DNA of 63,987 nt, filler included, from Nemertoderma westbladi (GCA_032718475.1; 3 parts of 3 records of this genome joined end to end with filler, not necessarily neighbours in it), one strand, 5' to 3'. Positions 7,696 to 51,245 are shown, counted from the whole stretch's first letter. Program-made: numbers and translations. The notes: generated by a model not told the origin, from the letters alone.

Positions 7696-8073
7696 CAGGT
7701 TCTTGAGATATGGAGTATTAATTTCAAAGCCAGCTGCCATTTTATTAGCCCCTGAGTTTTTGATTATTGATAGTAACAATGTGTTGGCAAGCTGATGAGA
7801 CCCAGTAAGGTCGAAACGCGTACGTGGTTTGGAGAGATATGAGATATTAATTTCAAGAAAAATTACGCGATTCTTAAATTTGTACACTACCTGGTTAAAA
7901 AGTACGCATGTGATGGGATTAGTCCTCCAATTGCGCCAATAAAAGATAAGTTATTTTCGGTAAAATAAACTTATCAGTCGAGGCAAAGACCCCTAGATCC
8001 CTTCCTATAATAAATGTATAATAACAAACACCTCGAAAAATACAGCTTGCCAACACATTGTTACTATCAATAA
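7696..8073 (+). mobile_element. Truncated copy of the 416-bp hammerhead element with inverted 5' segment
   Basis: 7696-~7794 is the reverse complement of the 3' part of the 33549-33964 unit. From 7792 the forward copy starts at CTGATGAGACCCAGTAAGGTCGAAACGCGTACGTGG, and the 5' strand of stem I is lost at the junction. Confidence 0.9.
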
Positions 8074-9076
8074 CCAATGTTTTATTACCGAGTTCCAATG
8101 CGGTAACGACCGTTGCGTTCCTACCGACTGGATTTGCGACAGAGACGGGTGTAAACGTTACGCCGACAGCCGACAACCGACACTCAAAAACCGACAACCA
8201 ACAACCGGCAACCGACAGTCGAAAACCGACAACAGACAGCCGACAACCAAATCCGAAAACCATTATTAACGGTAATTAAATAACAACAATAAAAAGAGCA
8301 ATTTGGAGAAGAAAAATATTCATAAACTGTTCGTGCCTTGTATTCTTTTAAACTCTATACTTTATAAAATAAATTAAGTGTGCATTATTTAAGATAATGA
8401 ACTATATTTAACACCGAAATAAGATTATTAAATACACTACCAATAATTTAAAGGTCACGCATGGGCCGGTCACGTCGCGTTTCGGCAACTGTCTCGTTTA
8501 GGCAACTCAAATTCGCGTTTCGGCAACTGAACAACTACGTTTCACAAACTGCTATATTTGTGTTTCGGCAACTCGTTATTGCATTTCGGCGAACTGAAGT
8601 CGCGTTTCGGCAACTAGGTGACAAACCCGCGTATGTAATGTAACTGTGACTAACATGTTCATTATGTAAGTAAATGATAAATGGTGACAACTTTAAGTTA
8701 GTTATAGTTTTGACGGCAGAGTTGTTAACTATTTGAGTTAGTTAGTTAATTTTAGGTCGTTTATATGTGTACATTGCCAGTTTGCACATGTGGCAGTGAT
8801 AAAATATGATTTTGTGTTCTGATTGATAAATGTATAATTTTTTTCCATCCGTGACGCTGGACAGCTGTTACTCAAACTAACCTAAAATTAGAATCATTGT
8901 ACAGTACGCTCTCCATTTTGGGCTCAAACTGATCCTGAGAGATGTGAGATTCTAAATAAAATAACTCTATCGACTGAGTCGAACGCGAGTTGAAAAACCA
9001 AAATTGAAAAGCGGAATAGATAAACAGTACTGTATGGATTAATATCAGATTGAATTATAATATCATTAATAATATA

Positions 9077-9274
9077 TAATATTATGGTTTTGTTCAGAAA
9101 TGGAAAAAATGAGAAAGCGCGTCACCGGGGGTTGACAAAAGTCACAAGTGGCTGAACTGGTTAGCGCGACTGATGAGGCTTGATAGGCTGAAACGTACTG
9201 TACGTATAGCGCTGGTTCAACCCCGGTGACGCGCTTTCTCATTTTTTCCATTTCTGAACAAAACCATAATATTA
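9077..9274. repeat. Near-perfect ~58-bp inverted repeat enclosing the family B hammerhead
   Basis: TAATATTATGGTTTTGTTCAGAAATGG...CACCGGGGGTTGA (9077-9135) is the reverse complement of 9217-9274, apart from one extra G. Confidence 0.92.
9163..9213 (+). ncRNA. Type I hammerhead ribozyme (family B)
   Basis: AGCGCGA-CTGATGA-GGCTTGATAGGCT-GAAAC-GTACTGTAC-GTA-TAGCGCT. Conserved core, stems I-III can pair (one mismatch in stem I), GUA cleavage triplet. Confidence 0.85.
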
Positions 9275-10324
9275 CATCTTTAATTACAGTTGCAACAGCT
9301 TAACTCCAATTTATCATTAATAATATCGAATGAATGCTCATTCAGGCTTACTGGTACAATGATTACATCATACAATGATACATACATAAAATGAAGAATA
9401 CCAGACTTTCTGCCGTTATATTTCACTTTGCAGTTACCCCCATGTGAAGAATACCAGGTTTTCACCAAAAACACAGGTTACAGAAGGGCTGAATCTAACC
9501 AAAACAATAACACCCCCCCCCCCCCCCCCCCCCAACAGCCCCCCTAATTTTTCTACAAATCTTAATGAGATTTCATGAAATTTGAAACAGGGATTATTTT
9601 CATTTCCCGACCTCTTACTGGGTGAGCCAGAATTTAAATTTTTGCTTTCAATCTTTAGCTACAAACGTTTAAAAAAAGTGTTCCCACCGCAGCTATTCTT
9701 CTACCTTATAGCTGTTAGTTGGTACTGCTAGAAAGCTGGCCATGCAAGGATTCCAAATATGTAGCACAACCTGAATTTCGTTAAAAAATAGCTGAGGCGG
9801 GCGTTCAAAAGTTGCATGGTTTTGCATCAGCGCCAGGCTATTTTATACTATTTAATAAATACACCATATTCTTAAAACAAATACAAATTATTCATATATA
9901 AAAAACTGTAATATACAATACATCACTGAAAAGTGAAAACTGTCGGTTGTCTGCTGTCGGTTGTTGGCTGTCGGTTGTCTGCTGTTGGCTGTCGATTGTC
10001 GGCGTAAAGTTTACACCCGACGGAGACGAGGATTGCCAGGATTCTTCGGATGAAGATAACTGCCAACACCAACTCGGTTAGTAACGCAATATTAATTATA
10101 CAATTAACACTTCTTCTTCCTAAATTAACTATGAGGTTTGAACTGTTACAGTCCGGCCACTGAAAAATATACAATTCGTTTTTAGATTTCGATGATCAAA
10201 AGTAGATAAATTATATTGGCGTCAAAAAAAATGGTATCCATAACTTCAATTATTTGTCTAGTCTAGAACATAGCCCATACGTAATTATTTATTAAATTAG
10301 GAACTCATCACACCATTCATACAC

Positions 10325-10816
10325 ATGGGCAGTAATTATTCTTATTCTAAATGGATGTCCGATGGCGACGGGGTTGGTTCCAATGCCACAGGGGGAGTTA
10401 GTAGCAGACTTGGTAAATTAAAAGGCGGCTTAGTATGTCCGAAATGCTACAATGTATTTATCGACCCAACTACATTGGAATGCACCCACACCATGTGCAG
10501 TTATTGTGTGCTGAAATCAATCCAACAGAAACTTGGTTGCCCTTCGTGTAGCAAACCTATTAAGATAGTAAGTCGGAATAAATTACTTGAAGGCATGGTC
10601 AACAAAGTAGTGGACGCGTTGATGGATATAGAAGATAAGAAAGCGAGGAACGACATTATAGCTAAACGGGGAGACGATGTTTTGGTGATCCCAGAGATCG
10701 TGGATGTCTGCGGCCATCATGCTTATGTTCCTAGTGACGTTGATGATGACGATGATAACACTGATGAAGACACCGACAATGGCGATGAAGACGAAACCTC
10801 TGTTGATAGTGAATAA
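10325..10816 (+). CDS. Small C3HC4 RING-finger protein, RNF8-like RING with acidic tail
   Basis: CPKC...LECTHTMCSYC...CPSC followed by a helical segment (LLEGMVNKVVDAL...KARNDIIAKR) resembling the RNF8 C-terminus. No FHA domain and no intron. Confidence 0.75.
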   Translation: MGSNYSYSKWMSDGDGVGSNATGGVSSRLGKLKGGLVCPKCYNVFIDPTTLECTHTMCSYCVLKSIQQKLGCPSCSKPIKIVSRNKLLEGMVNKVVDALMDIEDKKARNDIIAKRGDDVLVIPEIVDVCGHHAYVPSDVDDDDDNTDEDTDNGDEDETSVDSE

Positions 10817-11055
10817 GTTTTGAACTCATTACGATCATATTAATAACTTCTCCAGCATTTACCACTTGCTATAATCCTCCTATAATCTTCCTAAAATTTT
10901 GAAAATATTATTTAGCTACGTAATTAGTGAACACTTAATTTCCAAATTGTGAACAGTCTGAGGTGAAACTTAGTAAAAAAAATTTGAAATTGGCTGCAGT
11001 TCCGTGTGCCACTACACTAACAATGGCTACATTTCAGTGTGCCACTACACTAACA

Positions 11056-11253
11056 ATAGTAACAATGTGTTGGCAAGCTGTATTTATCGAGGTGTTTGTT
11101 ATTATACATTTATTATACTGTATAATTTGTACACTACCGGTTAAAAAGTACGCATGTGAAGGAATTAGTCCTACCATTGCGCCAATAAAAGATAAGTTAT
11201 TTTCAGTAAAATAAACTTATCATTCGAGGTTAAGACCCCTAGATCCCTTCCTA
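11056..11253 (+). mobile_element. Third fragment of the 416-bp hammerhead element (inverted + forward, no ribozyme)
   Basis: 11056-~11117 is reverse complement of the unit; ~11123-11253 is forward (AATTTGTACACTACC...GACCCCTAGATCCCTTCCTA). It lies within 33-bp satellite units. Confidence 0.85.
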
Positions 11254-11280
11254 CAGTATACTACACTAACAATGGTAATA

Positions 11281-11966
11281 TAGGGTATTAGTATGGCCTG
11301 TGACCCCACTTTTTGATGAAAAAAACTAACTAGATAGTCTATTTAGATAGAGTCTAACTAAACTGGAAAAAACTAACTAGATAGAACGATCTATTGCGAT
11401 GTTCCAGAATGTCATTTGACAGTTGCTATGGTTACCATTTTGGAGAAAAAGGGCGTTTTAAGAATGTTAGTTTTGAAAATTTATGTACAATAAAATTGCT
11501 TAATTTTGCGTGTAAAAACCATAGTTATGAGTTTCTGGAACATTATATTCAGTCAAACCTTCAATAAAATGATGAGGCTTGATGAGGAACAAGAGAGGAA
11601 CCAATAAGAACCTGTTACAGAATCATCTCGCTGAATTTTGGTGGCGAAATTACAACAGGGAGGCCCCATTCAGCAAACTGATAACACTAATAAACAATAG
11701 CGAATTATAGAAATCTGTTTACTTCAGTTCAAAAACAAAAAACTAATCAATTTACATTGTTATATTCATTAAATAACATATTCGATTAACCTTCAATAAA
11801 TCATTATTTACAACACTTGGTTACCATAGCAACACAAGAAAAATGTTCCAGAATGTAGAACTTGAGTGGGGCAAACATAATACCAACATATGTAGCTAGT
11901 ATATCATAAATTACTAGCTAGTTTTTTTCATCAAAAAGTGGGGTCACAGGCCATACTAATACCATA
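11281..11966. mobile_element. MITE of about 685 bp with ~50-bp TIRs
   Basis: TAGGGTATTAGTATGGCCTGTGACCCCACTTTTTGATGAAAAAAACTA and its reverse complement ending at 11966; flanked by TA on both sides. Confidence 0.88.
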
Positions 11967-11989
11967 TAGGTAAGATAATATAGTTCCGT

Positions 11990-28071: not shown

Positions 28072-28948
28072 ATGGCTGACCCAGATTCGTTTGCCAGGGC
28101 GGAGACCGACCTTCGGGCTCTGTTCTGTGCAATAAAAAAAGAAGAAAAGTGTATCAACCGACGACGAGAACCAGCTAGGAGACATGCTCGCACGGATCAA
28201 TGCTCAGTATCGAGAATCTCAGTACGACTACAGGGCTGCACTGTCAGACTTAGCAGAGTCGCGAAAGGAAACTGCAATAGCGCGAAAAGAAACAATAGAG
28301 GCAAAGGACGATCTGTTAAAGCACCTCCAGTCGGAGAGTTCTCGACAACGGAACTCGAACTCGAACTCCCGCTCATTTGCATCGGTAGTCCGGGGAACTG
28401 GTTACGCGGCCTCAACCGGAAATGCTTACCGCTCCGTCAACGAAAATCCGGCAATGAACTCCATATCGAGACCCGACAGTAACTCCCATACAGGAAGCGG
28501 CGGCGGTTCGGCATCAATGAACCACCCGACAGACTATAGGAGGCCTGCGCCGGTACGGGGTTGTCGGTCTGGTGGCCCTCTCCGTGTTGTAAAGGGAAAC
28601 GAGGATCAAAACGGCAAGAAGGCGCACGTTTACATTGGGCGGTTGGACCCAAACACTACGGAGGATGAGATTAAAGATTTCCTTGAAGGAGAAAGTCTGA
28701 ATATTGATGATGTCCATGCTCTCCCGCTGAAAGATGGGAACTCGCCATTTAGGGGATTCCATATTACGTGCAAACAAGCGGACCGTGATCGCATTATGGA
28801 CCCCAACCTATGGGAGTCAGGTATAGTAATTCGGGACTATTTCCTTACCAACACTGAGCGGCAGGCACTCGGCTTGCGGATGAGACAGCCAAGCCGCCGC
28901 ACAACCGCAACTGCAGACAGTGAGACAAATCATGGCCAGTCTGATTGA
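28072..28948 (+). CDS. LINE ORF1: coiled coil plus RRM-like domain; probable frameshift near the A-run at ~28134
   Basis: HVYIGRLDPNTTEDEIKDFL...FHITC...IMDPNLWESGIVIRDY is a typical RRM-type ORF1 C-terminus (frame 28184-28948). The ATG at 28072 is in another frame. Confidence 0.75.
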
Positions 28949-31738
28949 CATGAGGATTCTGGTGAGTGCTCTTTTGTTGTCTCTTTTTGGAATATTGAAG
29001 GTTTAAACACGATACTACTTTTGTCTCACGAAAAGCCGATTTTTGTGCAATCCGATGTTATTTTACTAGCAGAAACTCTATATTGGGATGGTCCAACATG
29101 TATACCAGGCTTCTATACCTATGATTATCCGGCAGTAAAACCAGAAAGAGGTAGACTGTATGGAGGTTTAACTATTGCAATTAAACCTGAGCTTGAACCT
29201 AAACTAATTCAATCGTGTAAAGAATTCATTATGGTATCCTCGAACGAGGGTATATTTGTGACTTGTTATTTTCCTCCAACTACAAGTTTAACTGATTTCA
29301 TAGATGGTGTTTTATATATTTTCGATGCTATTCCAATGAACTTTGATGGGTCTGTAACCATAGGTGGTGATTTTAATGCGAGACAAGATATTGAGCCTAC
29401 TTCCAAAGCTCTGGCTCTTGAAATCCTGATGGAGGACTTCAATCTAGTTATGCAAAACGACCCATCTGAGCCCACATATGTTTGTAATGGATCGTCAGTA
29501 ATCGATTTGATTTTTGCAAGTAAACAGTCAATCAATATAAGTGTAAGGCCTGATGACATTCGTAAACATTGTATTATTAGTTCAGTTTGGAAGCGGGAGA
29601 CAGGAAGGCAGCCTACAAACGGGGCCCAATCTGTTCCTCATTCGCGTAAAGTAGATACTGATAAGCTTCTGCAAGATGGGCGACTAGAAACTATCAATGA
29701 TTTTCTTATGGATAAGAACGTCGACGACGCCTACGACCTTTTAGTTGAATCCATCATCGACTCATCTCCTAAAATTACGGTAAAAAGTAAGTTCTCAAAG
29801 AGATGGTTTGATAAAGAATGCTACAATAAGCGCAAAGATGTTTTACTATTAAGCCATGCAGTCAAAAATGATTCATCATTACTAGACCAGCTCCGCGTTC
29901 AAAAACAGCAGTACAAAGACCTTTTAAAATGTAAACAGAAGAGTTATTCGCTGCTAAAAGAAGAAAAGCTCATACAAGAAGCCGAGGAGAAACCATATCT
30001 ATGGGCTAAGAAGAAGAACCAAGAACAAAGTTATCCAATTGATTTAAAGACTTGGGAAACACATTTTGAGAATATCTACAATCCCGAAGGTGAAACTTCA
30101 TTAAGCGAAGATAGCGAAAGTGAAGCTGAGGCTGAATGTGTTGAAGAACCTCCCTTCTCTATGGAAGAGGTAGAAGAAATAATAAAGGGGAAACCAAGTA
30201 ATAAATCGGGTGGTCCAGATAAAGTATATTATGAGTCATTAAAATCGTCATTACCAGTAACTCTCCTTCTAGTGACAACTTTGTTAAATGTCTGTTTACA
30301 AACAGGTACCCTAGTAAATAAATGGAAGAACAGTGTAATTAAGGTATTATATAAAAACAAAGGCTCAAGATCGGATCCTGATTGCTATCGTGGAATTGCA
30401 CTTTTGTACAATATGTTTAAGATATTCACCAGTTTAGTAGAGAAGCGTTTGCGTTTACGAGTGTCTAATAAGCTGCCATCAGAACAATATGGATTTATGC
30501 CCGGCAAGTCGACTATAATGGCATTAACCAAGTTCATTAAAGATATTCAATCTAAACTGTCTCGACCAAGATCACCATTATATGCAGTTTACGTTGACTT
30601 TCGTAAAGCTTTTGACAGTGTACCGCGTAAGTTACTTCTGTACAAGCTCTATTATCATTTCAATATTCGTGGAAGCCTCTACAGAATAATTAAAGCCATT
30701 TTGTCAACAAATTTTATTAGAATATATGATGGACTGCGGTTATCTAAGATTATAGCCCAGATACGGGGATTGGCACAGGGTGAATGTCTCAGTCCTTTAT
30801 TGTTTGTGATTTTCATTTCTGATATTGTTGGTTTTGTTAGAGAAGCAGTACGGAAAATAGGCGAAGTTGTAATATTGCTGTTTGCTGATGACCTTTTATT
30901 TTACGCCCATACTAGAGAAGAAATTCAAGCCGCATTAGACGCCCTTTGGGATTGGACACAAGCAAATGGTCTTGAAGTTAATTTGGATAAAACTGCTATT
31001 ATGAAGTTTCGACGAGGTGGGAAGTTGTGTCTAAACGATAAATTTTACTTAAATGGAAAACTAGTCAAAATAGTAAATAACTACAAGTATCTTGGAATGA
31101 TTTTTCAACCGTCCCTATCGTTTACCAAACATTGTGTTGCAGTCACTTGTAAATATTTAAAAGCAATCCATTCCATACACGATCCGCACTTATTGTCAGT
31201 ATCGACAGCTATGCGCTTATTTTCTATTAAGATTGTGCCGGTCATAACATATGGTTTACGAGTAATATGGCCCCATTTGAAATCCAGTGATATGGAAACT
31301 TTAGATAAAATTAAAACAGTCTATCTGAAGAAGACTCTATCAGTTTCAAAATTTAATAAAAATCGCCTAGTCTACGCATTGGCTCAGGAACCTCCGTTGA
31401 CACTGGAATTGGTGGACAAGTTAAATCTTCCACTCACAACAGAGTTTAATATCTATCACAGTAATATTAATGAAAAACTAGACGACATCCAAAGTGAATT
31501 TTGGTCTTTAGGACTCCACTCTGATCGAAGTTGGGCGAACTCGAACCAAAAGTCTCGACAAATTCTCTCACGTTTAGCAATGCACGGATACCATCACCAT
31601 ATTTGCTCGACAGGGCGTTTTCACGAAGCCTCTAGTAGTTGCTGTTGTAGACTCTGTGGCGAGCCTGCGTCGCAGTACCATCTCATATCTTGTAGAGCGA
31701 ACTCTAAAAGTTTATATTATTACAGCAATCTTAATTAA
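28949..31738 (+). CDS. LINE ORF2: AP endonuclease, reverse transcriptase, C-terminal CCHC
   Basis: SFWNIEG, LAET, GGDFNAR and SVIDLIF (APE); YRGIALL, QYGF, VDFRKAFDSV, GLAQGECLSPLLF and LFADD (RT); CRLC...H...C tail. Uninterrupted frame. Confidence 0.95.
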   Translation, partial: HEDSGECSFVVSFWNIEGLNTILLLSHEKPIFVQSDVILLAETLYWDGPTCIPGFYTYDYPAVKPERGRLYGGLTIAIKPELEPKLIQSCKEFIMVSSNEGIFVTCYFPPTTSLTDFIDGVLYIFDAIPMNFDGSVTIGGDFNARQDIEPTSKALALEILMEDFNLVMQNDPSEPTYVCNGSSVIDLIFASKQSINISVRPDDIRKHCIISSVWKRETGRQPTNGAQSVPHSRKVDTDKLLQDGRLETINDFLMDKNVDDAYDLLVESIIDSSPKITVKSKFSKRWFDKECYNKRKDVLLLSHAVKNDSSLLDQLRVQKQQYKDLLKCKQKSYSLLKEEKLIQEAEEKPYLWAKKKNQEQSYPIDLKTWETHFENIYNPEGETSLSEDSESEAEAECVEEPPFSMEEVEEIIKGKPSNKSGGPDKVYYESLKSSLPVTLLLVTTLLNVCLQTGTLVNKWKNSVIKVLYKNKGSRSDPDCYRGIALLYNMFKIFTSLVEKRLRLRVSNKLPSEQYGFMPGKSTIMALTKFIKDIQSKLSRPRSPLYAVYVDFRKAFDSVPRKLLLYKLYYHFNIRGSLYRIIKAILSTNFIRIYDGLRLSKIIAQIRGLAQGECLSPLLFVIFISDIVGFVREAVRKIGEVVILLFADDLLFYAHTREEIQAALDALWDWTQANGLEVNLDKTAIMKFRRGGKLCLNDKFYLNGKLVKIVNNYKYLGMIFQPSLSFTKHCVAVTCKYLKAIHSIHDPHLLSVSTAMRLFSIKIVPVITYGLRVIWPHLKSSDMETLDKIKTVYLKKTLSVSKFNKNRLVYALAQEPPLTLELVDKLNLPLTTEFNIYHSNINEKLDDIQSEFWSLGLHSDRSWANSNQKSRQILSRLAMHGYHHHICSTGRFHEASSSCCCRLCGEPASQYHLISCRANSKSLYYYSNLN

Positions 31739-32700
31739 TCGTGCGTAATCTCTTCGTAATACCATATGCATATGTGAAATTTTGTACATTGTTTTTACTG
31801 TACCAATATTTTTGGTTTAATAAATTATATTATAAACAATTGTAATATTAATTAAGCGTTTTCCAGGAGGTATTTTTTTAAAAGTTTAGTAAATGTATGT
31901 TTTGATTTGGAAGCCCGAATATTTTCGGGCAGGTCATTCCAAATTTTGACTCCCTGAAATTTAAATGAGCGGTGCGCGACTAAGAGACGGACATTGGGGA
32001 AATAGTAATTTTTTGATGTTGTCGCTCTCGTGTTATATGTGTGGATTTCTGAGACCTTAGAAAATAAATTTGACAGATTAGATTTGTCGAGATTGTTGGA
32101 TATATCAAACATTGCCGAAGCTACTTGCTGTATGTACAGCTTTTCAATTGGAAGAATTCCTAGCTCTTTGTAGACTGGAGTTGCCGAGGATCGGCAGCTC
32201 TTGTCTACTATTGTGTGTTGTAGAGAGATGTTTGCTAGTAGATTTCTATAATAGTTGTTTCTTTGCGACATTCGGAGTTGAACCAAGGTTTACTGTGTTC
32301 CAGCTCTTGTCTACTGTTGTGTGTTGTAGAGAGATGTTTGCTAGTAGATTTCTCTAATAGTTGTTTCTATGCGACATTCGGAGTTGAACCAAGGTTTACT
32401 GTGTTACAGCTCTTGTCTACTGTTGTGTGTTGTAGAGAGATGTTTGCTAGTAGATTTCTCTAATAGTTGTTTCTTTGCGACATTCGGAGTTGAACCAAAG
32501 TTTACTGTGTTCCAGCTCTTGTCTATCGACCGAACTATAGAGGAACCGGAACCGAACATGGCAATTTTTAAATTTTGATTGTGTTGAATTGTCTATGATT
32601 TTTGTAAGTGTTATTGTTCAATTATTACATTACTTATTATCTTGTTATGATTTGAATCAATATTTTCCATTATTAATCCACTCCATTACTTTCTATATAG

Positions 32701-33182
32701 GCGACCAATCACAACCATTCCCTGATGATTCAGACATGCTCATTTCCGACGCCGACGATGACGTAACACCCAGAAGTATAAATAATTCCTTCGACCAACC
32801 TGGTCCCTCTCCCTCTGGGATTCAACCCCAGGACATTGTGAAAGGAAACCGCTCCAATGAGAAGCCCTTCAGCTGTGATACTTGTGGTAAGACGTTCGCA
32901 TGGAACTGTCGCCTAATTGCGACAATAACCACATGCGACATCTGCAACAAACGTTTCTCTCACCTGTGCAACCTAATCTCGCACAAGCGGACGCATTCCG
33001 GAGAGCGACCGTTCGTGTGCGACACGTGCGGAAAGGGATTTACAGTGAGCGGCAATCTAAACGCTCACAAGAGATTACATACAGGGGAACGACCGTTTAG
33101 CTGCGATACATGCGGTAAATGTTTCTCCCACCGACATCAAGTATCGAGCCACAAATGTATCCGCAGTGAGGAGACTCAGTAA
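32701..33182 (+). CDS. Terminal exon of a C2H2 zinc-finger gene (paralog 1, first finger damaged)
   Basis: Acceptor TAG at 32698-32700; CxxC...HxxxH fingers with SGERPF/TGERPF linkers. Finger 1 lacks its His pair. Intron end and 3' UTR closely match 40990-41655. Confidence 0.75.
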
Positions 33183-33556
33183 CTGTAATGTTTGTAAGAA
33201 ACGTTTATCCACTTCCGGTGATATTGTTGGACACAGATAAACTAAAATTCTGTATGTAGTTAGTTGTAGATTATGATAATTAAATTTAAAAACAGTTAGA
33301 TTATCAGAAGAAATTTAAAGAACCAAATATTTACATTAACAACATTATAACATTATATTATCGCGAAGTGTGAAATGGATGTGGGGAAAGTTGGATATAT
33401 GTAAATCAAATTGATTCCTGATCATTGATAGTAACAATGTGTTGGTTGGCAAGCTGTATTTATCGAGGTGTTTGTTATTATACATTTATTATAGGAAGGG
33501 ATCTAGGGGTCTTAACCTCGAATGATAAGTTTATTTTACCGAAAACAACAAGAACC

Positions 33557-33612
33557 TGTGGCCTAGTGGTTGTAGTCTCGGCTTCCACCTCGAGGTCCCA
33601 AGTTCGAATCCG
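33557..33612 (+). promoter_or_regulatory. tRNA-like head with Pol III A and B boxes (also 33973-34028, partial from 34389)
   Basis: A box TGGCCTAGTGG; anticodon-like arm CTCGG-CTTCCACC-TCGAG; B box AGTTCGAATCC. Confidence 0.75.
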
Positions 33613-33614
33613 AC

Positions 33615-33657
33615 ACCACGCTGATGAGACCCAGTAAGGTCGAAACGCGTACGTGGT
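33615..33657 (+). ncRNA. Type I hammerhead ribozyme (family A, copy 1)
   Basis: ACCACG-CTGATGA-GACC-CAGTAA-GGTC-GAAAC-GC-GTA-CGTGGT. Perfect 6-bp stem I, 4-bp stem II, palindromic minimal stem III ACGCGT; predicted cut after 33651. Confidence 0.92.
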
Positions 33658-34030
33658 TTGGAGAGATATGAGATATTAATTTCAAGAAAAATTACGCGGT
33701 TCCTAAATTTGTACACTACCCGGTTAAAAAAGTACGCATGTGATGGGATTAGTCCTACAATTGCGCCAATAAAAGATAAGTTGTTTTCGGTAAAATAAAC
33801 TTATCATTCGAGGTTAAGACCCCTAGATCCCTTCCTATAATAAATGTATAATAACAAACACCTCGATAAATACAGCTTGCCAACCAACACATTGTTACTA
33901 TCAATGATCAAAAATCAGGGGCTAATAAAATGGCAGCTGGCTTTGAAATTAATACTCCATATCTCAAGAACCTGTGGCCTAGTGGTTGTAGTCTCGGCTT
34001 CCACCTCGAGGTCCCAAGTTCGAATCCGAC

Positions 34031-34073
34031 ACCACGCTGATGAGACCCAGTAAGGTCGAAACGCGTACGTGGT
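34031..34073 (+). ncRNA. Type I hammerhead ribozyme (family A, copy 2)
   Basis: Identical to 33615-33657, 416 bp downstream. Confidence 0.92.
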
Positions 34074-35659
34074 TTGGAGAGATATGAGATATTAATTTCA
34101 AGAAAAATTACGCGGTTCCTAAATTTGTACACTACCCGGTTAAAAAAGTACGCATGTGATGGGATTAGTCCTACAATTGCGCCAATAAAAGATAAGTTGT
34201 TTTCGGTAAAATAAACTTATCATTCGAGGTTAAGACCCCTAGATCCCTTCCTATAATAAATGTATAATAACAAACACCTCGATAAATACAGCTTGCCAAC
34301 CAACACATTGTTACTATCAATGATCAAAAATCAGGGGCTAATAAAATGGCAGCTGGCTTTGAAATTAATACTCCATATCTCAAGAACCTGTGGCCTAGTG
34401 GTTGTAGTCTCGGCTTCCACCTCGAGGTCCCAAGTTCGTAAAACTGTCTCTGTTTCAAATTTTGCCATTTTATTATTACTAACAAATATTTTTAAGACGC
34501 CGTATACACGATGTTCTAGACGCAGAGTAAAAAAATAATACCTTGAATATAAAATAACATAAAATCACTTGAAAAAGGTTCAATAAAGAAAATGAAAAAT
34601 GAATATTTGTAAAGTCTTTATTTGTTCAACCAAATTTTATATATTTGGTATCTGGTGAAGCTCTTTATCAATTTTATCTCATATTACTTGACATTCTATG
34701 ATCGATATAAGTTGATGGCAATGAAACCATCAAATTCCCTTGTGCCTTTAGTACAGTTGACAGTCACTATACTTTACTACAGTACTAATACGATTATTTT
34801 TCAATTTACGCTGTCAGTCTGACTGTGCCCGGTCCGATCACCTCTAATTTCAACAACCGGTAGGGTCTAGGTACTGTATGTGGATGTACATCAGCAGTAG
34901 GCATACAGTACATGGCTTTTTGCCTTTACATGATTTTACACAAAATGCCCTTTTACATCCGAAAAGTAATGTATATGTTTTTGTACAAAAATCACATCAG
35001 GCCTTAATAATATGAAAATGGGAGACATTGTCAGGAATCCGCATGCATAAATGCCCTTTTGCCTTTTTACCGACGATTTGGCTGCAAGGCATGGATCAAC
35101 CTGAACATGCGACTAGTGAATAGACTTTGCAATTGCATTAAGGTAAACCCTAAGCAAACGTGGATACACTTTGAATATTAATTAGGGTTTGGGCCGCCAC
35201 TCGAGTGAGATGAACTGGAGCTAGGATCTGCTGAAGCCGATTAAGGACTAACGAGTTTCAGGGCCTCCACCTGCATTTGACCTACAGTACTGCAGTAACA
35301 GTACAGTGTGACTGTCTGTTTATTGTTTTGGTTAGAAACGCCCGCCTCTGTAACCTGCTCCTTTCCCTCAATTGGTAAAGATGCCGTTTATTTGTTTTGG
35401 TTAGACAAGCCTGCCTCTGTAACCTGCTCCTTTCCCTCAATTGGTTTATGGCGTGTGTTACTTATTTATGAAAAAAAAATGTTTATGAAAAAAAAATTAA
35501 AAAAGTGTTTCATAAAATAAGCGGTAGGGCCTACATATAAAAGTGTTTCACAAAATAAGTTGTAGGGCCTTAAAAGTTTTTCATACAATGGTCCCCAAAG
35601 GAGGCCCCCAAACACGTTCATCCCGCCGATTATAATTAATCAAAGGCTACCAATTAAAG

Positions 35660-38974: not shown

Positions 38975-41562
38975 ATGGAACGGTTTACTTGTGAGTCGGA
39001 CAACGCATTGGTAATTACCAAATCTATGTTCGTGAACATCTGTTCAGAAAATGACACGTTTGTGCGGAGATTTCTCGAAGAATACTTGGAAGTAAACTCG
39101 TGTTTTCTGGACGATTATGTTGTTAAGAATTGTACGGCTGGTCGCATTACTGAGTGGCTACAGCATTCACTCTCCTATCCCTCTAACAACGCCGCCACCA
39201 TCTCGGCTTTGCCCCAATACATAACTCAATCACCGACCACTGTCCCGACTACCGGGTACCGTAAGACCAGTCTGCCACTGCCGCAGAATCCATTGAGGAC
39301 ATCAGTGACGACAAATGGCGGTACTAGGTTCTGCCACAATGACAATCCTGCGACCGGAATTGGTTTCCACCCTAAATCTCGAAACTCGAATCCACACACG
39401 CCACGTACCGAACCCTCATCCATGCACCCTGTGGTGGGGTTACCATATCTCAACCAGGCAGACCTCCCCGGAAATCAAATACAAATGAACCCCAAACTGA
39501 GTCTGATAGACACCAAACCAAACCCCATTGTATCTGAATCGTCTAATAAGACAGCCAGTTTAACTTTATTATCTGATAACAACATATCGTATACCCCCGC
39601 AGTAACCACAACCAACTCAACCAATAATTCTACACAACCTCTATCAGAGCCATCCGATGCTCCGGAAATCATATTCATTGAGACGGAAGACGAACTGGAA
39701 TATAAACCCGACGTAGGTGAGGTTGGCGATGTCTTAAATGAATTTTTCTTCGATATAAATAGACCACATGGAATCCATATAGACAAATCGACCCCCCACC
39801 CCCACACCACCCAGGGTCTCTCCCCACTCACCAACTACTTAACCCCCATCTCTACTCAGCCTCTAGGCGACTTCGACTTAGACCTTCCCAATACCTACAA
39901 CCTCCATTTCAGACCCAAATCAACAGTTTCCGGTATCGGTGAGTTACTATATGTTAGATTAAACAACATTTAGTCCGTATTGCCTGCATAGGAAAACTTA
40001 TCAGGTTCAGGTAACATTTGATGTGGATGATTTTGCTGAATATTCAAATTAAAATAAAAAATGTCAGTCGATATCACATATGTTAGGCCCTATAGTTAAA
40101 ATTATTTAACTTAAATTAAAAACGGTTCCAGGGATAGGTTGTCGGCAGTCTGCGTAGCGTTTACACCCACTTTGTTCTGCAGGGTGATGAGGTCACGATA
40201 CGATTTTGTTCAAAAATATAAAATGGTAGTTTTGGTGGTGTGATATACAGTAACTTATATCTAAAATTGTCTTTGCATACAAGATAATTCATTGCAAGAT
40301 ATCATTATGGGAATTTGTGTTTGCTTTGAATATTTTGCGACTGCAGAACTTATAATGTGCTAACTCAACGACATTACATTGTTAATAAAATACATTGGTT
40401 TGAGTTTATTTGGCGTCTGATCTGATCTACAACATATTGGATAATGTGTTTGTTTTGAATATTTCGCGACAGCAGAAATTGTAAAGTTCTATCTAGAAGA
40501 CAATATTTTTTTATGATAATACATTGATTGTCTTAAATATGTTGCAATTAAGCATTCAATTTAGCCACCAGTAGCACAATCATGTCTATGTTTCCCTTTT
40601 AGTAATTACATTTCCTTAGGCTGTGGAAATATGCTTTTGCAGCATTTAATACAGTAAATTTTAATTTCAAAAACTTTTTTTTAATTTGAATTGACCTGAT
40701 AATGGAACTGTACAAAATTAATATTTTTTTAAATTATATCTCATCTCATATCTCTATCAGAGGTTCGACATGATTCTAGTATAGGCCTATGTTAAAATGA
40801 AGCGGGGGAAATTACACTACATATACAGTAATAGTACGTATTAAGCCATAAGGCATTTAGGCTGCGCTGGTTCAAATCTTAGAAAAGTCATTCCACAATT
40901 TTTCATTTTTGTAAAACACCTTATTATATATTTGGTATCTCCAATCGGATTAAAACCGATAAAACCGAATCGTATATAAACAAATCGGATATTGTGTTGT
41001 GTTGAATTTTCTATGATTTTCGTGAGTTTTATTGTTCTATTATTACATTATTATAGTGCATTACTTACATATTCTGATATTAATCAATATTCTCCATTAT
41101 TAATCTACTCCATTACTTTCTGTAGGCGGCCAATCACAACCATCCCCCGATGATTCAGACATGCTCACTTCCGACGATGACGTAACACACGGAAGAATGA
41201 ATAATTCCTTCGTCCAACAGCAGTTCAGCTGTAATACTTGTGATAAGACGTTCGCATATAACAGTCAACTAATTACACACCAACGGATCCACACCGGCGA
41301 GCGACCTTACCAATGCTGCATCTGTAACAAACGTTTCTCCCAACTAAATTCCCTAAAGATACACAAACGTACGCATAGTGGAGAGAAACCGTTCGTGTGC
41401 GACACGTGCGGGAAGGGATTTACGCAGAGTAGCAATCTAATGCGCCACAAGAGATTACATACAGGGGAACGACCGTTTAGCTGCGATACATGCGGGAAAT
41501 GTTTTTCCCAACGCCATCATGTATCGAGCCACAAATGTATCCGCAGTGGGGAGACTCTGTAA
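38975..41562 (+). CDS. C2H2 zinc-finger protein (paralog 2); exons 38975-39938 and 41126-41562
   Basis: Donor G|GTGAGT at 39938/39939 (phase 1) fits acceptor TGTAG|GC at 41125/41126 (phase 1). Four fingers with TGERP/SGEKP linkers; S/T/P-rich middle region. Confidence 0.75.
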
Positions 41563-41653
41563 CTGTAATGTTTGTAAGAAACGTTTCTCTACTTCCGGTG
41601 ATATTGTTGGACACAGATAAACTAAAATTCTGTATGTAGTTAGTTGTAGATTA

Positions 41654-41860
41654 TGTGACGGGATCTGAGAATCCCGATTTATCCGGTTATCTTGTTTACG
41701 CGTCCCCGCCGTGTGTGTGAAAAGAGTTCTGATATTATTGAGTTGCTCTGACCATTGTTGGTAACGTATGTATAAATATATATAATAAAGTATAAGCACA
41801 GTTGGCAATAAAGTGATAGTTGAGTACCGGTAATATAGTTGAATGATGATGGCGGCAGTG
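41654..41860 (+). mobile_element. Possible LTR fragment with primer-binding-site-like motif
   Basis: Starts TGTGACGG exactly where homology with the paralog 1 UTR ends, contains AATAAA, and is followed by TGGCGGCAGTGG. No canonical CA end and no second LTR seen. Confidence 0.3.
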
Positions 41861-42917: not shown

Positions 42918-45495
42918 CTAGTTCGTTCCACCTGACTTTGGGAACCATCTCCAGTCCTTCCCTCTGTCGTCCTCTTTTCTTGGTCGTTTCCTGGCCGCTG
43001 CTGCTCCCTTGGTCTTATCTCCCTTCAGGCTCTTGACCCTCGCCGTCACCTCTCTACTAATCCCGGTCGTCGACTCCTTGGGCGCTGGTGTTATTAGCTC
43101 CCGATATCGCTTCGCGGGTGGCCCCTCCGAGTGGCCCTGTTGTCTCCCCCTGGTGGCGTCCCATAGGATCACTTTCATCACCCGTGGCACATGCTCCGCC
43201 AAGAAATCTCTGAACTCCCCTCTGTTCTGTGGCATCCACCTGTCCATTTATCACCCCGGCATACGACGCCGCCGTCGCTACCTCCTGGTAGGTAAACAGA
43301 CGTCTCCATTTGATAATCTCCAAGTGGGCCTCCTGGTTGATATTAAAGAAGCCCCACCGGAACTCCTGGGCCTTCATACGTTGCCGAGTCATGGCCCCGA
43401 TGTCGGCCCACTCCTCGAAGATCCTAAACTTCTCTTCGTCGTCCATCCAGTCGCACTGGCGTCCGTAGTGCCCCCGGAAGTTACACTTCGAACACCGGTT
43501 GTGCAACCGTGGACACGCCCCCATCCTGTGGCTCAACTCGCGGCAGTAGAGACAACTAGTCCCTTTCTGGAACCGGTACAGACAGCTCCTTTCCTGGTGG
43601 GTTTGCCTCCCACAGTAATCATAGCCGAGCACCAATGTCTCCCGCCCCACGTCGTCTTTTGTCCCAAGCGATCTCCGCGGTCTGTGGAGTCGCTGGTAAG
43701 CGAACTTTTGGACATTAGCGTCCCTTTCCACGTCTATCTTCTCGCACCTCCCGGGCATCGTCTCCCCGAATACTACCCGTGGTGCCGTTCCCGGTTGCTC
43801 GCCCAACCTGATGGTGCTCCCCGCGAAATCCATCGTCGGCTCCTCATGCACCCAGGCCCGCTTGCCGGGTCTATCCCAGAAGGCCCTCGCCCCACTGGCC
43901 GTCACCACCCTCCCGCCAACCCAGTCCGTGTCCGAGTGGCCGATTCTCCCGATGGGCGGCATCTCTCCGAACTCGTCGTCATCCTCGTCCTCCTCTGGGA
44001 GTGGCTCCAACCCCGGTATCCCGGTGGACCCACTGCGTCCCTTCCCACCTTGGCTCTCGCCCGTGACTTTCCATCCTTCCAGCTCCCCTAGCCTCCTTAG
44101 CGGGTGATTGCCCTCGGTGCCCGCTGGTATGGGCGTCGTCTGCAATCCTGATGTCGACTGTTTCGGTGATTCCACCGTCCACCCTAATTCTCACCCTAGA
44201 GACTCCCCCGAACTCCCTGATGACGTCCAACGAAGTTCGTCTAAGGCCGCCTGTTCCTCGAAGCCGTAGCTCTGCCCTCTAGCTTCTTCCTCCCTTTCCT
44301 CTGCCTCTCTCCTTTCCTCTCTAGCGATTTCTTCCAATCGCTTCGCTTCTCGTCTATCCGCCTCTAGCTGCTCCCATCTCTGATACGGCGTATCCACCTC
44401 CCCGTCTACCAGATGTCGGCAGTTATAGTACACCGACTCGCCCTTCAGCCCCGGGTGGTCTACCAGACCCTCGAAAGCCGTCTTGAAGGCTCTTCTGTAG
44501 TTCAGGGGTGATCCCGATAGCAGGAATGCCGTTGGTTCTTTCCCAATGACGATGGTCATGAATAGGTTTAGCAAACCCATCATTATCCAGTCCTCCTGCA
44601 GGATATATCGCTTCTGATATACCTTTATCGCTCCTCTCCGGAATTGATACACCTCTTGTTTCCCTGGCCTCGCTCCCCACTTCAGCGAGTTTGCCAACTC
44701 CGCTCCGTACTCCTCTCTGAACTTACTCCAGTCCATTGGTTTGTGACACACGAGCCCCATTAGCTGGCCCATCGCCACCGCTCTACAATGGCCTGAGTTC
44801 TCCACTAGTCCCAACCCGTCTGGTGCTGTCATAGCCATGTAGACCGTCTGCATGTCCAGGATGTTGGGGGTGTCCGGACCGATGATTCTCTCCGCATCGT
44901 CGCGGATCGCCGATCCCACCTTCGTCGTTGACTTCTCTCTCACTAGGATTTGCACCGCCTTTGGCAACCGGTTCAACTTCAGCCCGTTCTTCTTTCCATA
45001 CGTCCCTAGATCGAATAGGAATATATCCCCATTTGGCGCGGCCAAATGTAGGAGTATGGTTCTGGCCAACCCCGCCGATCCTCTCCTCAAACCTTCCTCG
45101 TCTTCCACAGTCCCCTCATCGTCTAGGACCATGTATCCTCCCCTGCTGATGGACTCTACGAACCTCTTCCAATCCTTTCTCGGTGGCTCCTTCGCGTACT
45201 TCGGAATCCCGAACTTCGCCTCGTCTCCCTTCACCACGTAGTGGAAATGCTCGAAGATCGCATTGTCCAGCGACGGCGTCCCGTAGGTCCCGACCAGCCG
45301 CTGTTCGTGCACCTTCCTGAAATGGTCCTCTAGCGCTCGCGCTTTGTGACCTCTCTCTAACCGCTCGTAGTATCCCCTCGTCTTCTCTTCCGGATGCCTC
45401 TCGGTGAAATCCACCAGTATCTCCTTTCCTCCTAACTCCGCCTTTCTCTTTCGGACAAGTTTCTCTGCCATCTCGAACTCTCCCCAATGGCTCAC
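42918..45495 (-). pseudogene. DEDDy-type 3'-5' exonuclease + coiled coil + CCHC knuckles; one in-frame TGA and a probable frameshift
   Basis: MVLDDEG...LLHLAAPNGDIFLFDL...LPKAVQILVREKSTTKVGSAIRDD...ILDMQ resembles the WRN/EXD2-like exonuclease. ORFs 44191-45495 and 43057-44175 share a frame. CLYCRELSHRMGACPRLHNRCSKCNFRGHYGRQC knuckles. Confidence 0.65.
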
Positions 45496-46017
45496 CCGTT
45501 AGGTGGTGCCTTGCCAAGGCGCTGTACGGATGAGTGATAAAGTTAGGATGGTTTATTCAGTTCGATAATGGCCTATTTCTCCCAGAAACCTAAGTTATAG
45601 CCTAATTTTCCTAACTAATTTTCTAAAACTACCAAATTGTACTAAATTTCGCAATTTTGTCCGTTACTTTAATTATGTTCCAGAATATTTTCCTACTGTT
45701 ACCATCATTTGTCTAATTTCTACCTTTTATTTTATTTTAATTTAATTCAATCCTACTACTGTGCTACTACTTATTCCTGCCAATGGATTATTCTATTTTA
45801 TAATCCACATTCTGGCCTACTCTGTGGGCTTGTGCAGTACAATAGTATGGGTCGCGTGGCCTACACGATTTATCCAGCTGTACTCACGTGCCCCCCTCTC
45901 GCTACTCACTACTAACTAATACTTATATTATACATACCCTTCTACCACTAACTCTTACTAACCGGTACTACATACCCTCTTACTAACTTCTAACTCCACT
46001 AACTCTTACTAACCGGT

Positions 46018-46500: not shown

Positions 46501-47550
46501 GATTTTGTTTTCTATATCTATTTTTTTATTTATAAAGCTACTGTTCTGAAACTTTAACACAAAGATCTGTGATCTTTTACTAAGAAAACTAAGTATGGAT
46601 AGCTTCGTAAACCCGTTTGTTCGAAAAATAGGGCACTTTTTGTGCAGGTCGGTTTTTTTCTAAAATTGTATACTTTTTTAGGCTTTTATAATGTAAAAAA
46701 TAGCGTGTAGAAAGAAGGATCAGTACTACCTCCTGGGTTGAAGTTCTCGGTCCAAGATTTTGGCACAATGAACCTAGGTATAAGGCAATCTTTTATGAAA
46801 ATTTCAGCAAAAATTATTATTTTTGAATAATTTATGGGGACTTTAGTATGTTTGGGCTATTATTTTAGGAATCACATATTTTGTGATAGACAAAGGGTAG
46901 TAGTTCCAAAATCGGTTCTAGAACATTAAAGCTGTCATGTTTAACAAAATAAATACCTACCGGTACTCACGAATGTAGCCCTAAACCTGCTGAACATGAA
47001 AAATAAAAACGTGTAGGAATTTAGTGAGAAAAAATGTCGAAATCGACAAACTGAGAAAAATGTTGTTTTATACAGAGTCATGAATATAAGCCATAAAGAC
47101 TGTTGTTGAAAAGTGCAGTTTTGTGGCGAAAAGTGGGGAAAGCCGATGTCACCACATGAAAGCCCTTCTATCAAACTACAAAAATAGATGAAAACATATA
47201 TTTTTGTAAATTTTCGAAAATTTAACTTGTGTTGTGGTCTTAATTTAATACTACTACTACTACTACTAGGTCGAGCGAACTCGGACAGTGGAAATGAGAT
47301 CCTTCCAGGCTTCCCGATTCTCCATAGTTGTCGCAATTTCGTTTCTCCTAAGTTCAGTATCCCTTTCAAGTTGATCTATATATGTTATGGCCGGTCGTCC
47401 ACGACTACGCTTTCCATGAGGTGGTTGCCAGAAAAGTAGATCTGGTATGACCTCGTCTTTACTTCGCCAGCAGTGCCCACTGAATCTTAATCTGCGTTCA
47501 CGGAGGGTGGTTGATACAGGTGGTATTGTACCATAAAGCTCGGCGTTTGT

Positions 47551-49015
47551 ATACATAGTAGAAATGTACCGAACAACAAGAGTCCCACAAGAAATGAAAA
47601 CAAATAAGTTAGTGCCAGTTCCCAAGAAGGGCAACCTAACACTCTATGGTTCTTTTCGGGGAATCTCATTGATCTCGATTGCTGCAAAGCTATACAATAG
47701 GATTCTATTAAATCGCATCAGGGATCCCATTGAGAGACTGCTCTGTGGAAATCAGAATGGGTTCCGTAAAGGTCGTGGGACCATGGAGCCCATTTTGGCA
47801 CTTAGAAGGATAATTGAAGAATTATCAAAAAAGAAAGACAGGCATCTGGCTGTTATCTTTGTTGACTTCTTCAAGGCCTTTGATTCAGTCTCTCGCTCAC
47901 GTATGTTCAGCATACTTTCATTATATGGGATTCCTGATGAAATTATTGCAGCAATCAGATCAATATACGATGGTTCGACAACATTTGTGTCTACTGTTGA
48001 CGGTGACACAGAACCATTTGAAGTGTTATGGGGCGTCCTCCAAGGAGACACACTTGCACCATTCTTGTTCATTATTGTGGTTGACTATGTTCTACGCATG
48101 TCCTTATATCATCATAATGATGATGGGGTGATGATAACTCTACCTACTGGCTCCAGAAGTCGAGGAAATCCTGCCAAGTACCTAACTGATCTAGACTTTG
48201 CTGATGACTTAGGAGTACTCTCAGAATCATTAGAGGGAGCCCAACGGCTCCTCAGCTCATTAGAACATGCTGCTTCTAGTGTTGGTCTTTTTATTAACTC
48301 CAGAAAGACCAAAATTCTGACAGTTAACTTTGAAAGTCCTCAGCAAGTCTCTGATCGGATGAGCATAAGCTCAAAGGATGGTATGCTTGAGCATGTGGAC
48401 GACTTCTGTTACCTGGGATCATGGATCCGGAAGTCAGGTGAGGACCTTCGAATACGTAAGGGAAAGGCATGGGCAGCCTTGAATAGGCTTTCCAGGATTT
48501 GGAAGTCACCGAGAATTAATCGGAAACTTAAGGTCCAATTATTTAGAGCAGCAGTAGTTCCAGTACTCCTCTACGGGAGTCCATGCTGGGCTCTAACTGC
48601 TGAGGACACCAAATCTCTTGATGGCACATTCACAAGAATGCTACGCCGGGTTCATTGTGTCAAGTACAATGCACACATCTCCAACCAGACACTATTTAAC
48701 ATTGGAGGTGTCTCATTGGTTCCCCCAAGCTTGACACTAGAACAAAATCGCCTCCGCTTTGCAGGACATTGCTTTCGCCGTGAGGACCAGCCAGTGCATA
48801 ATCTTGTACTTTGGCAGCCTCATGGAGTGAATAAGCATGGTGGACAGCCCATGACTTTCTTGAGACGCATCTTAAAGGACACTGGCCTTAAAGATGCGGA
48901 TGATCTAGCAAATGTCATGGGTGATAGGGAGTTGTGGCGGTGCAATTTTGTTGACAAGCCGGCACAGCATTCCTAAAAATGCAGCTGCAATGCAGCATGC
49001 CGATCCTAGTAGTAG
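47551..49015 (+). mobile_element. RTE-clade LINE family B, copy 1 (5'-truncated; ORF 47564-48976)
   Basis: PVPKKGNL...FVDFFKAFDS...GVLQGDTLAPFLF...DFADD...RLRFAGH; ends GATCC-TAGTAGTAG; interrupts family A. Confidence 0.92.
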
Positions 49016-50077
49016 TATGTGTTGTCTCCAGCTAATGTTTAGGGCTGCCCTTAGTAGTCTTGTGTAGCAACCATCAATTCGTTGTTCAAGTGATTTAGTC
49101 AGTGTCCACTGTCCAGGTCTCACCCCCGTATAAAAATACACTTTCCACTGTGGCTCGAAAGAACTTAGTCTTCAGGTGCCTGGAGAGATCTGATTTCCAG
49201 ATGGTATCCATTTTTGATAGAGCTACCCAAGCCTTTGCTTTCCTAACTTCTATGTCCCTTTTTGCTACTCTCTATCCATGATCCAAGGTACTGGAAGTCA
49301 TCGACCTTCCTTAGTTGATTATTATCAATGGTTGTCAAGTTTCCATCAACATTAAAGGTCATGAATTCGGTCTTGGTAGCATTTATATGCAATCCAACCT
49401 CCTTAGCAGCCCTCTCCACTTTATTTAGTAGAAGCTGTGCATCTGCTAGCGTATTAGAGAGCAGGGCGATGTCATCCGCAAAGTCGGTGTCTGTGACTGT
49501 AGTTGCCGGATATCTACTACTTCTGCGTTCTTGAAGTGTGAATCCCAGATCTTCACCCTTTGTGGCCGTCCTTATTGCGTAATCCAGCACAATTACAAAT
49601 AGTAATGGTGCTAATGTGTCGCCTTGCAGTACGCCAGCCAGGATTGAGAAAAACTCAGTTTCACCATCTGGTGAGAGTACCTGCGCTTCTGTGTCACAAT
49701 ATAACAATCCAATGCCAGCAACAATTACTTCTGGTATTCCATAAGATCTTAGGATTTCAAGCATTTTACCTCTATGGATGGAGTCGAATGCCTTCTTGAA
49801 GTCCACAAAAGTCATGACTGCGGGGAGATTCTTTGACTTAATTCCTTCAATCAGTCACCGTAGTGCAAGTATCTGAGCTATTGTTGATCTACTTGGTCGA
49901 AATCCGTTTTGGCTCTTACGCAGTAGTTTCTCTATGTGAGGCCTAATCCTATATAGAATCATTTTATTGTATATTTTGGCAGCTACCACAAGCAGACAGA
50001 TCCCACGATAGTTTGTTGGTATGCCGAGGTCTCCTTTCTTGGGGAGAGGCTTTAGTTGACCTTTAGTCCAAATTGGT

Positions 50078-51245
50078 ACTACTACTACCAGGATCGGCAT
50101 GCTGCATTGCAGCTGCATTTTTAAGAATGCTGTGCCGGCTTATCGACAAAATTGCACCGCCACAACTCCCTATCACCCATGACATTTGCTAGATCATCCG
50201 CATCTTCAAGGCCAGTGTCCTTTAAGATGCGTCTCAAGAAAGTCATGGGCTGTCCACCATGCTTATTCACTACATGAGGCTGCCAAAGTACAAGATTATG
50301 CACTGGCTGGTCCTCACGGCGAAAGCAATGTCCTGCAAAGCGGAGGCGATTTTGTTCTAGTGTCAAGCTTGGGGGAACCAATGAGACACCTCCAATGTTA
50401 TATAGTGTCTGGTTGGAGATGTGTGCATTGTACTTGACACAATGAACCCGGCGTAGCATTCTTGTGAATGTGCCATCCAGAGATTTGGTGTCCTCAGCAG
50501 TTAGAGCCCAGCATGGACTCCCATAGAGGAGTACTGGAACTACTGCTGCTCTAAATAACCGGACCTTAAGTTTCCGATTAATTCTCGGTGACTTCCAAAT
50601 CATGGAAAGCCTATTCAAGGGTGCCCATGCCTTTCCCTTACGTATTCGAAGGTCCTCACCTGACTTCCGGATCCATGATCCCAGGTAACAGAAGTCATCC
50701 ACATGCTCAAGCATACCATCTTTTGAGCTTATGCTCATCCGATCAGAGACTTGCTGAGGACTTTCAAAGTTAACTGTCAAAATTTTGGTCTTTCTGGAGT
50801 TAATAAAAAGACCAACACTAGAAGCAGCATGTTCTAATGAGCTGAGGAGCCGTTGGGCTCCCTCTAGTGATTCTGAGAGTACTCCTAAGTCATCAGCAAA
50901 GTCTAGATCAGTTAGGTACTTGGCAGGATTTCCTCGACTTCTGGAGCCAGTAGGTGGAGTTATCATCACCCCATCATCATTATGATGATCTAAGAACGTA
51001 TCTAAGAACGTATCTGATATGATCTGCGTAGAACATAGTCAACAACAATTATGAACAAGAATGGTGCAAGTGTGTCTCCCTGGAGGACGCCCCACAACAC
51101 TTCAAATGGTTCTGTGTCACCGTTAACAGTAGACACAAATGTTGTCGAACCATCGTATACTGATCTGATTGCTGCAATAATTTCATCAGGAATCCCATAT
51201 AATGAAAGTATGCTGAACATACGAATTGGTGTCTTTCCGAATCAT
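50078..51245 (-). mobile_element. RTE-clade LINE family B, copy 2 (5'-truncated)
   Basis: Near-identical reverse complement of ~47900-49015; (TAG)n tail; 11-bp TSD TCCAAATTGGT (50067-50077, 51246-51256). Confidence 0.92.

Follow-up and report, generated by a model that had tools for sequence, protein, structure and literature searches.

Head-to-head insertions of a tRNA-headed hammerhead repeat in Nemertoderma westbladi, likely made by a Penelope-like enzyme

How does a short repeat come to lie in a genome as two pieces of opposite orientation, and which enzyme put it there? The question is raised by a 63,987-nucleotide stretch of Nemertoderma westbladi DNA (GCA_032718475.1; three records joined end to end with filler), here called the window, which is repeat-rich animal DNA with LINE-type reverse transcriptase (RT) ORFs and zinc-finger genes. 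A first-pass annotation held that all three loci of a hammerhead-bearing repeat, at 7696, 11056 and 33419, are each made up of one piece of the unit in reverse complement and one in forward orientation, and blastn found this arrangement at 3/3 unit loci. We think it likely that these are three separate insertions of a retrozyme repeat by a Penelope-like enzyme that started copying from the two cut strands of the target, in most cases at set positions within the RNA, the copies then likely being joined. What is observed in support of this best explanation is the anatomy of the unit, the head-to-head geometry, the clustering of the ends and the absence of LINE-type tails. Published systems are compared throughout on the basis of parts of the cited papers.

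A tandem unit with a hammerhead and tRNA-type boxes

The right arm of locus 3 contains 2.14 identical 416-nt units arranged head-to-tail, the period being that found by tandem-repeat analysis of the window; positions in the unit are written u, with u1 at window position 33549. A and B boxes at tRNA spacing occupy u11-63 (33559-33611 and again 33975-34027, plus strand). The motif search returned these two matches in the window and none in 100 shuffles, scored against what we take to be the A/B-box consensus. Neither ARAGORN nor Rfam called a cloverleaf for the unit. A complete type I hammerhead, identified by Rfam HH9 and motif reading, lies at 33615-33657 and again at 34031-34073 (plus strand), with a 6-bp helix I, a 4-bp helix II and a short palindromic helix III. 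Its core spans u73-103 and the cut is predicted after u103 (window 33651). The HH9 match (E=0.00038, 26.6 bits) is under the gathering score of 52; Rfam gives 0 hits at gathering scores and a loose hammerhead pattern by itself is not above chance (13 vs 8.5). A short palindromic helix III marks the form of hammerhead described in PMC4209133, in the part drawn on here, as needing dimers.

Stops interrupt each of the three sense frames over u70-416, which makes the unit non-coding, and a protein search with its longest open stretch (56 residues), a weak test, found nothing. The family is high-copy, with 1330, 3412, 1 and 77 matching contigs in four sequencing runs, and the tandem joint is present in contigs of all four, one of which is possibly the window's own source.

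On its sequence, the 416-nt repeat would fit among the animal non-LTR retrozymes: it has a type I hammerhead in each tandem unit, a unit length inside 150-450 bp and no coding capacity. It shares internal A and B boxes with tRNA-derived SINEs, a LINE-type 3' tail is absent, and it is not classed as a LINE-dependent SINE. Nor is it classed as an autonomous EN+ Penelope-like element, being non-coding and having no ORF for RT plus GIY-YIG.

Three insertions and the positions of their ends

Locus 1 sits in the last monomer of a 55-bp satellite array. Its left arm (7696-7794, minus strand, u325-426) adjoins the last full monomer; its right arm (7791-8073, plus strand, u72-359) ends 3' at a site shared with the other loci and is flanked by a 12-nt partial monomer (8074-8085, plus strand), there being no clean target-site duplication. 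The arms meet with 4 nt of microhomology. At locus 2 the left arm (11056-11122, minus strand) comprises u288-353 plus 5 extra bases and has its outer end at the shared site, and the right arm (11124-11260, plus strand) runs from u158 to about u291. The same 5-base variant occurs in both arms, which overlap by 9 nt of template, and a 15-nt palindrome crosses the junction with its centre at 11119. A 14-bp direct repeat (11044-11057 and 11260-11273) encloses the locus; it lies within a two-monomer remnant of a 33-bp satellite and so could be either a duplication or a leftover monomer. The left arm of locus 3 (33419-33549, minus strand, u232-362), also with its outer end at the shared site, is identical to the forward copies at 131/131 positions, whilst the right arm (33549-34438, plus strand, u1-890) begins 10 nt before the A box and stops inside the third B box; one base is shared at the junction. 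Locus 3 has no target-site duplication, a distant search giving only 7-10 nt chance-level matches, so that a flanking duplication is seen at one of three loci (locus 2, 14 bp, satellite-ambiguous). The first-pass annotation spoke of copies of a hammerhead element. Locus 2 contains no hammerhead, its arms excluding the core at u73-103, and locus 1 retains an intact core and has lost the 5' strand of helix I.

Several neighbouring features deserve record. Just upstream of locus 3 lies one member (32541-33275) of a C2H2 zinc-finger paralogue pair, the other being at about 41100-41655; the latter (at about 41.2-41.7 kb) was tried as an empty site for locus 3 and set aside, as similarity stops at 33275, before the insertion. 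Thirteen nucleotides at 34463-34475, 25 nt past the right end of locus 3, match u378-390 on the reverse strand, which may be chance. Beside locus 2, at 11279-11968, is a MITE-like element whose 55-bp terminal inverted repeats are 96% identical and which is flanked by a 7-bp direct repeat, and an intronless RING-finger ORF (10301-10816) lies between loci 1 and 2.

At each junction it is the sense 5' ends of the two arms that meet head to head, leaving both sense 3' ends facing the flanks. The 5' ends of paired arms are 130-253 nt apart on the unit and junction microhomology is 0-4 nt. Loci 1 and 3 continue unbroken through the ribozyme cut site and have the same sequence in both arms (35 nt and 131 nt, respectively), from which it follows that the RNA copied was multimeric or circular, or that two molecules were used. 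Since flanks, junctions and private variants differ among the three loci, they represent separate events, as the first-pass annotation had proposed. It was right too that two of the three, loci 1 and 2, are at satellites. With tandem arrays making up 33% of the window this is unremarkable (~0.26, binomial). Its view that the breakpoints differ each time holds for the inner junctions, which are different at each locus, and fails for the outer ends: one per locus falls at u353, u359 or u362, a 10-nt window (P=0.012 for uniformly placed ends; post hoc, n=3). Whether a copy starts with its inverted segment depends on the strand read, and at loci 2 and 3 it is the left arm that carries the shared end. 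Two of the six outer ends (u10 and u58) fall off the clusters. Locus 2 has one outer end at or beside each of two 3'-end clusters, in the manner of a one-sided tail. A CAAT/ATTG word near each shared end was noticed post hoc and set aside.

The second cluster comes from loose ends in contigs, for which 18 of 439 contig rows, chosen for support, were considered; three edge artefacts and two alignment breaks whose letters continue the unit were dropped, leaving 13. Ten of the 13 are 3' ends, seven at u294-306, two at u357-358 and one at u224. From these, two preferred 3' ends emerge genome-wide, u294-306 and u357-358, in rows whose choice by support favours clusters and in which one locus may recur across runs; both lie in an A/T-rich stretch, in which the end of an alignment can shift. 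The remaining three of the 13 are 5' ends (u173, u245 and u406, one contig each, that at u173 close to the edge of its stretch), and the letters beyond them match neither strand of the unit by eye. Not every genomic copy therefore has an inverted arm: the universal inversion claimed in the first-pass annotation describes 3/3 copies in the window and does not extend to these contigs. Opposite-strand joints make up 1 of 15 joints shown (36 listed) in one set of contigs and 0 of 3 in another, and short-read contigs are likely to lose such joints. The one found (u236/u44), a fourth joint of this kind beside those of the three loci, is present in contigs of two independent studies; judged by the record coordinates, it would also be head-to-head.

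The two end clusters are 55-65 nt apart, and nowhere in the unit is AC content higher than in the interval between them (0.75 at u301-340); folding of the AC-rich segment is no better than that of shuffles (z=+1.08). Both clusters are A-rich and the ends stop before an A5 run at u362-366. A 19-codon ATG-led frame (8014-8073) spans the interval between the clusters; it may be chance, and ORF starts likewise span Penelope tails. The first-pass annotation had named LINE-type tails as evidence against a Penelope origin, and they are absent: none of the 6/6 outer ends of the three loci has a poly(A), A-run or simple-repeat tail.

Origin of the inverted arms

Junctions that are all 5'-to-5' would suggest that both target strands were primed and two cDNAs joined, rather than that one cDNA switched template. 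Arm 5' ends 130-253 nt apart and so little microhomology fit priming at both ends followed by end-joining, a better account than the template switching put forward in the first-pass annotation. The Anolis Penelope protein (PAc) supplies a biochemical model. As given in part of PMC11167929, PAc (i) nicks and extends both target strands; (ii) begins synthesis internally, at two positions of an AC-rich stem-loop in its RNA, with no base pairing to the target; (iii) uses uncleaved RNA as template. The model predicts that arms point tail-out, that their ends are fixed where the unit is richest in AC and that they run through the ribozyme cut site, as seen here.

We propose that polymerase III read-through of tandem units would supply an uncleaved multimer (or a re-ligated circle). 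A Penelope RT/GIY-YIG protein acting in trans would start copying near u353-362 or u290-306, and reverse transcription would be primed from both cut target strands to give two 5'-truncated cDNAs. These short cDNAs would then be joined to each other using 0-4 nt of microhomology. The non-standard outer ends, u10 and u58, may represent opportunistic second priming or later deletion. One suggestive case is the long arm of locus 3, whose first base lies where a polymerase III transcript would likely start. Counted against this explanation are the lack of a partner, the two ends off the clusters, the cluster spacing, the failure of the AC-rich segment to fold better than shuffles, the few opposite-strand joints among contigs, the choice of loose-end rows by support, the LINE RTs of the window, the sample of three with its post hoc clustering test, and the single duplication.

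A more specific version, tentative and in our judgement somewhat short of an even chance, would make the repeat a SINE of Penelope, in which a tRNA promoter, a hammerhead and a Penelope-type start region are combined, polymerase III delivers the uncleaved multimer and dual priming occurs at two fixed sites. If true, thousands of junction contigs would amount to insertion-level proof of the enzyme that moves animal retrozymes, and linear multimers, not circles, could be the template.

About 1 kb from locus 1 is a second, unrelated stub (family B) with a comparable plan. A 15-bp AT-rich direct repeat, likely a target-site duplication (9061-9075 and 9312-9326), encloses an inverted arm (9077-9135, minus strand) that is the reverse complement of 9217-9274, a forward arm (9136-9274, plus strand) and a 37-nt one-sided extension or tail (9275-9311, plus strand). 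The forward arm carries a type I hammerhead-like motif unrelated to that of the 416-nt unit, read by hand at about 9160-9216 with its core at 9170 and 9190; Rfam gave no match to it. The 15-mer occurs only twice in the window and 0/3000 flank shuffles reach 15 bp, whilst 4/4000 random window pairs do, pairs that could include the family B locus itself. The inversion junction has a 4-bp hairpin. This is the layout given for Penelope-like elements (inverted arm, one-sided tail, duplication) in the parts of PMC8557442 and PMC3846280 used here, and it makes it likely that a Penelope-type enzyme was active at some time in this genome. The tails of the two families are not significantly similar (score 17 vs 15 on the other strand). 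An inverted pair of 7-mer-repeat segments (8146-8217 and 9948-10019, about 81% identical) brackets 1.7 kb including the stub and is possibly an old non-autonomous DNA transposon.

Penelope-type mobilisation, as first proposed, is thus supported indirectly, by the head-to-head arms, fixed internal 3' ends, missing poly(A) and nearby stub, and no GIY-YIG/RT element was found. The search for one that the first-pass annotation had called for showed no GIY-YIG domain among the 11 window ORFs scanned, which gave RVT_1 four times (LINE-type) and an AP-type endonuclease once. Exact-pattern scans of metagenome and viral contigs gave no match, and neither a partner ORF nor pLTR homology was found in the window ORFs or contig scans. 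Multi-copy contigs of run X5 share parts of the unit at depths of 512, 73 and 401, one with nine T-to-C changes. Two of high depth leave the unit at u351 and run into 444 and 664 letters unlike it, as might be expected of a longer parent, and a coding test failed to support this. Two long high-depth X5 contigs tried as the autonomous partner are unproven in that role. In one of 600 nt (u223-351), the frame that scores best has 6/10 synonymous differences (null P=0.26) and still contains a stop; in one of 1831 nt (u28-136), changes in the hammerhead core give the look of a decayed copy inside another repeat. Elsewhere the window holds an apparently intact LINE (28136-31738; an ORF1-like frame, then a 929-residue endonuclease-RT frame) and two long LINE-RT copies in inverted orientation at 47537-51223, which are 95% identical over 1144 bp and enclose a third RT fragment. 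Two adjacent minus-strand ORFs of 377 and 435 residues (43057-45498) lie in a GC-rich island and have no Pfam match.

The LINE RTs of the window bear on the main competing account. On this view the repeat behaves as a tRNA-headed SINE mobilised by a LINE reverse transcriptase, and the inversions come from twin priming of the L1 type, with internal A-rich tracts as the priming sites. The A and B boxes, the four LINE-type RT ORFs and the A-rich end clusters with their A5 run would all suit it, and locus 2 has near-exactly the expected geometry: adjacent arms on one template, a 9-nt overlap and a 14-bp duplication within the 10-20 bp range given in part of PMC4245944. However, the insertions have neither poly(A) nor a repeat tail and their flanks lack A-runs, the ends stop before the A5 run, and loci 1 and 3 would require gaps of 61 and 173 nt on a multimer. 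In the same partly used source, 5' inversions were found almost only with human L1 in human cells, which would make 3/3 unusual. We regard twin priming by a LINE as unlikely.

That the enzyme was of Penelope type and the inversion arose by fold-back self-priming (the model in part of PMC3846280) or template switching of a single cDNA seems to us quite improbable. The palindrome over the locus 2 junction and the hairpin at that of family B are what fold-back might leave, but arm overlap plus 1 extra base explains most of the former, loci 1 and 3 have no mirror symmetry, and u360-426 of the locus 1 left arm is absent from the right arm and was therefore not copied from it. It is very improbable indeed that the inversions postdate insertion, having come about through recombination or through repair within repeat-rich chromatin, or that the assembly is at fault. 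Satellites account for 33% of the window, which also has an N gap, loci 1 and 3 have no duplications and the three junctions are those of the assembly; against this stand the same head-to-head polarity throughout, the perfect identity of the locus 3 arms, the duplications that still flank the whole inverted structure at locus 2 and family B, and the recurrence of an opposite-strand joint in two independent studies. Priming of both target strands by a Penelope-like enzyme is the explanation we retain.

Relation to known elements

The layout ascribed to Penelope-like insertions by the first-pass annotation is indeed published for them, as the cited parts of PMC8557442 and PMC3846280 attest. Inversion alone is not Penelope-specific, because L1 twin priming also makes it (PMC4245944, in part). 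EN+ Penelope-like insertions (Fig. 2 legend of PMC8557442; Adineta Pen2a in the portion of PMC3846280 used; Anolis PAc in part of PMC11167929) likewise have a head-to-head inverted 5'-truncated copy, partial tandems and a hammerhead. Their internal start sites, one-sided tail and optional duplication may have counterparts in the two end clusters and in locus 2. In contrast to these elements the 416-nt family has no RT/GIY-YIG ORF. Its tail interval is 55-65 nt, whereas 30-40 nt is published for Penelope-like elements in the parts drawn on and family B has 37 nt; its start sites lie ~190-260 nt after the ribozyme cut, as against ~85-92 nt in PAc (same part of PMC11167929).

L1 twin-priming 5' inversions, as set out in part of PMC4245944, resemble the present loci in that both target ends prime and the arms point tail-out, and locus 2 fits their geometry. 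Unlike them, the 416-nt family has no poly(A), its internal 3' ends are fixed, and its arms overlap or need a multimeric RNA. The schistosome Sm-alpha/Sj-alpha repeats (PMC2770079, in part), compared by description, are likewise tRNA-derived, SINE-like and equipped with a hammerhead.

Animal non-LTR retrozymes are the closest in unit structure. In the parts of PMC7229834 and bioRxiv 10.64898/2026.07.22.740005 used, they too are non-coding tandem units of 150-450 bp, each with a type I hammerhead and a palindromic short helix III, and Penelope-like elements have been put forward as their mobilisers or their source. The 2026 preprint argues, in its part cited, from co-occurrence and pLTR homology that retrozymes are non-autonomous Penelope-like derivatives. 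The 416-nt family differs in having tRNA-type A and B boxes, and its insertions show inverted arms and fixed ends. These two insertion features are not discussed in PMC7229834, from which the word 'inverted' is absent, or in the main text of the preprint, where neither 'tail' nor 'tRNA' occurs and 'inverted' appears in one reference title. In literature outside subscription journals and Repbase, we found no paper that takes inverted insertion of a tRNA-headed retrozyme as its subject.

The inverted layout is thus already published for Penelope-like elements, and the retrozyme-Penelope link is already in the 2026 preprint (both as far as the cited parts go). As the layout itself is known, the gain lies in corroboration and in a tRNA-headed example. 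Arguments over the enzyme that moves animal retrozymes have so far drawn on ribozymes in common, on co-occurrence and on pLTR homology. The scars left by insertion are evidence of another kind, for which three loci have modest value; in this case they favour Penelope-like elements and single out the RNA sites u290-306 and u353-362.
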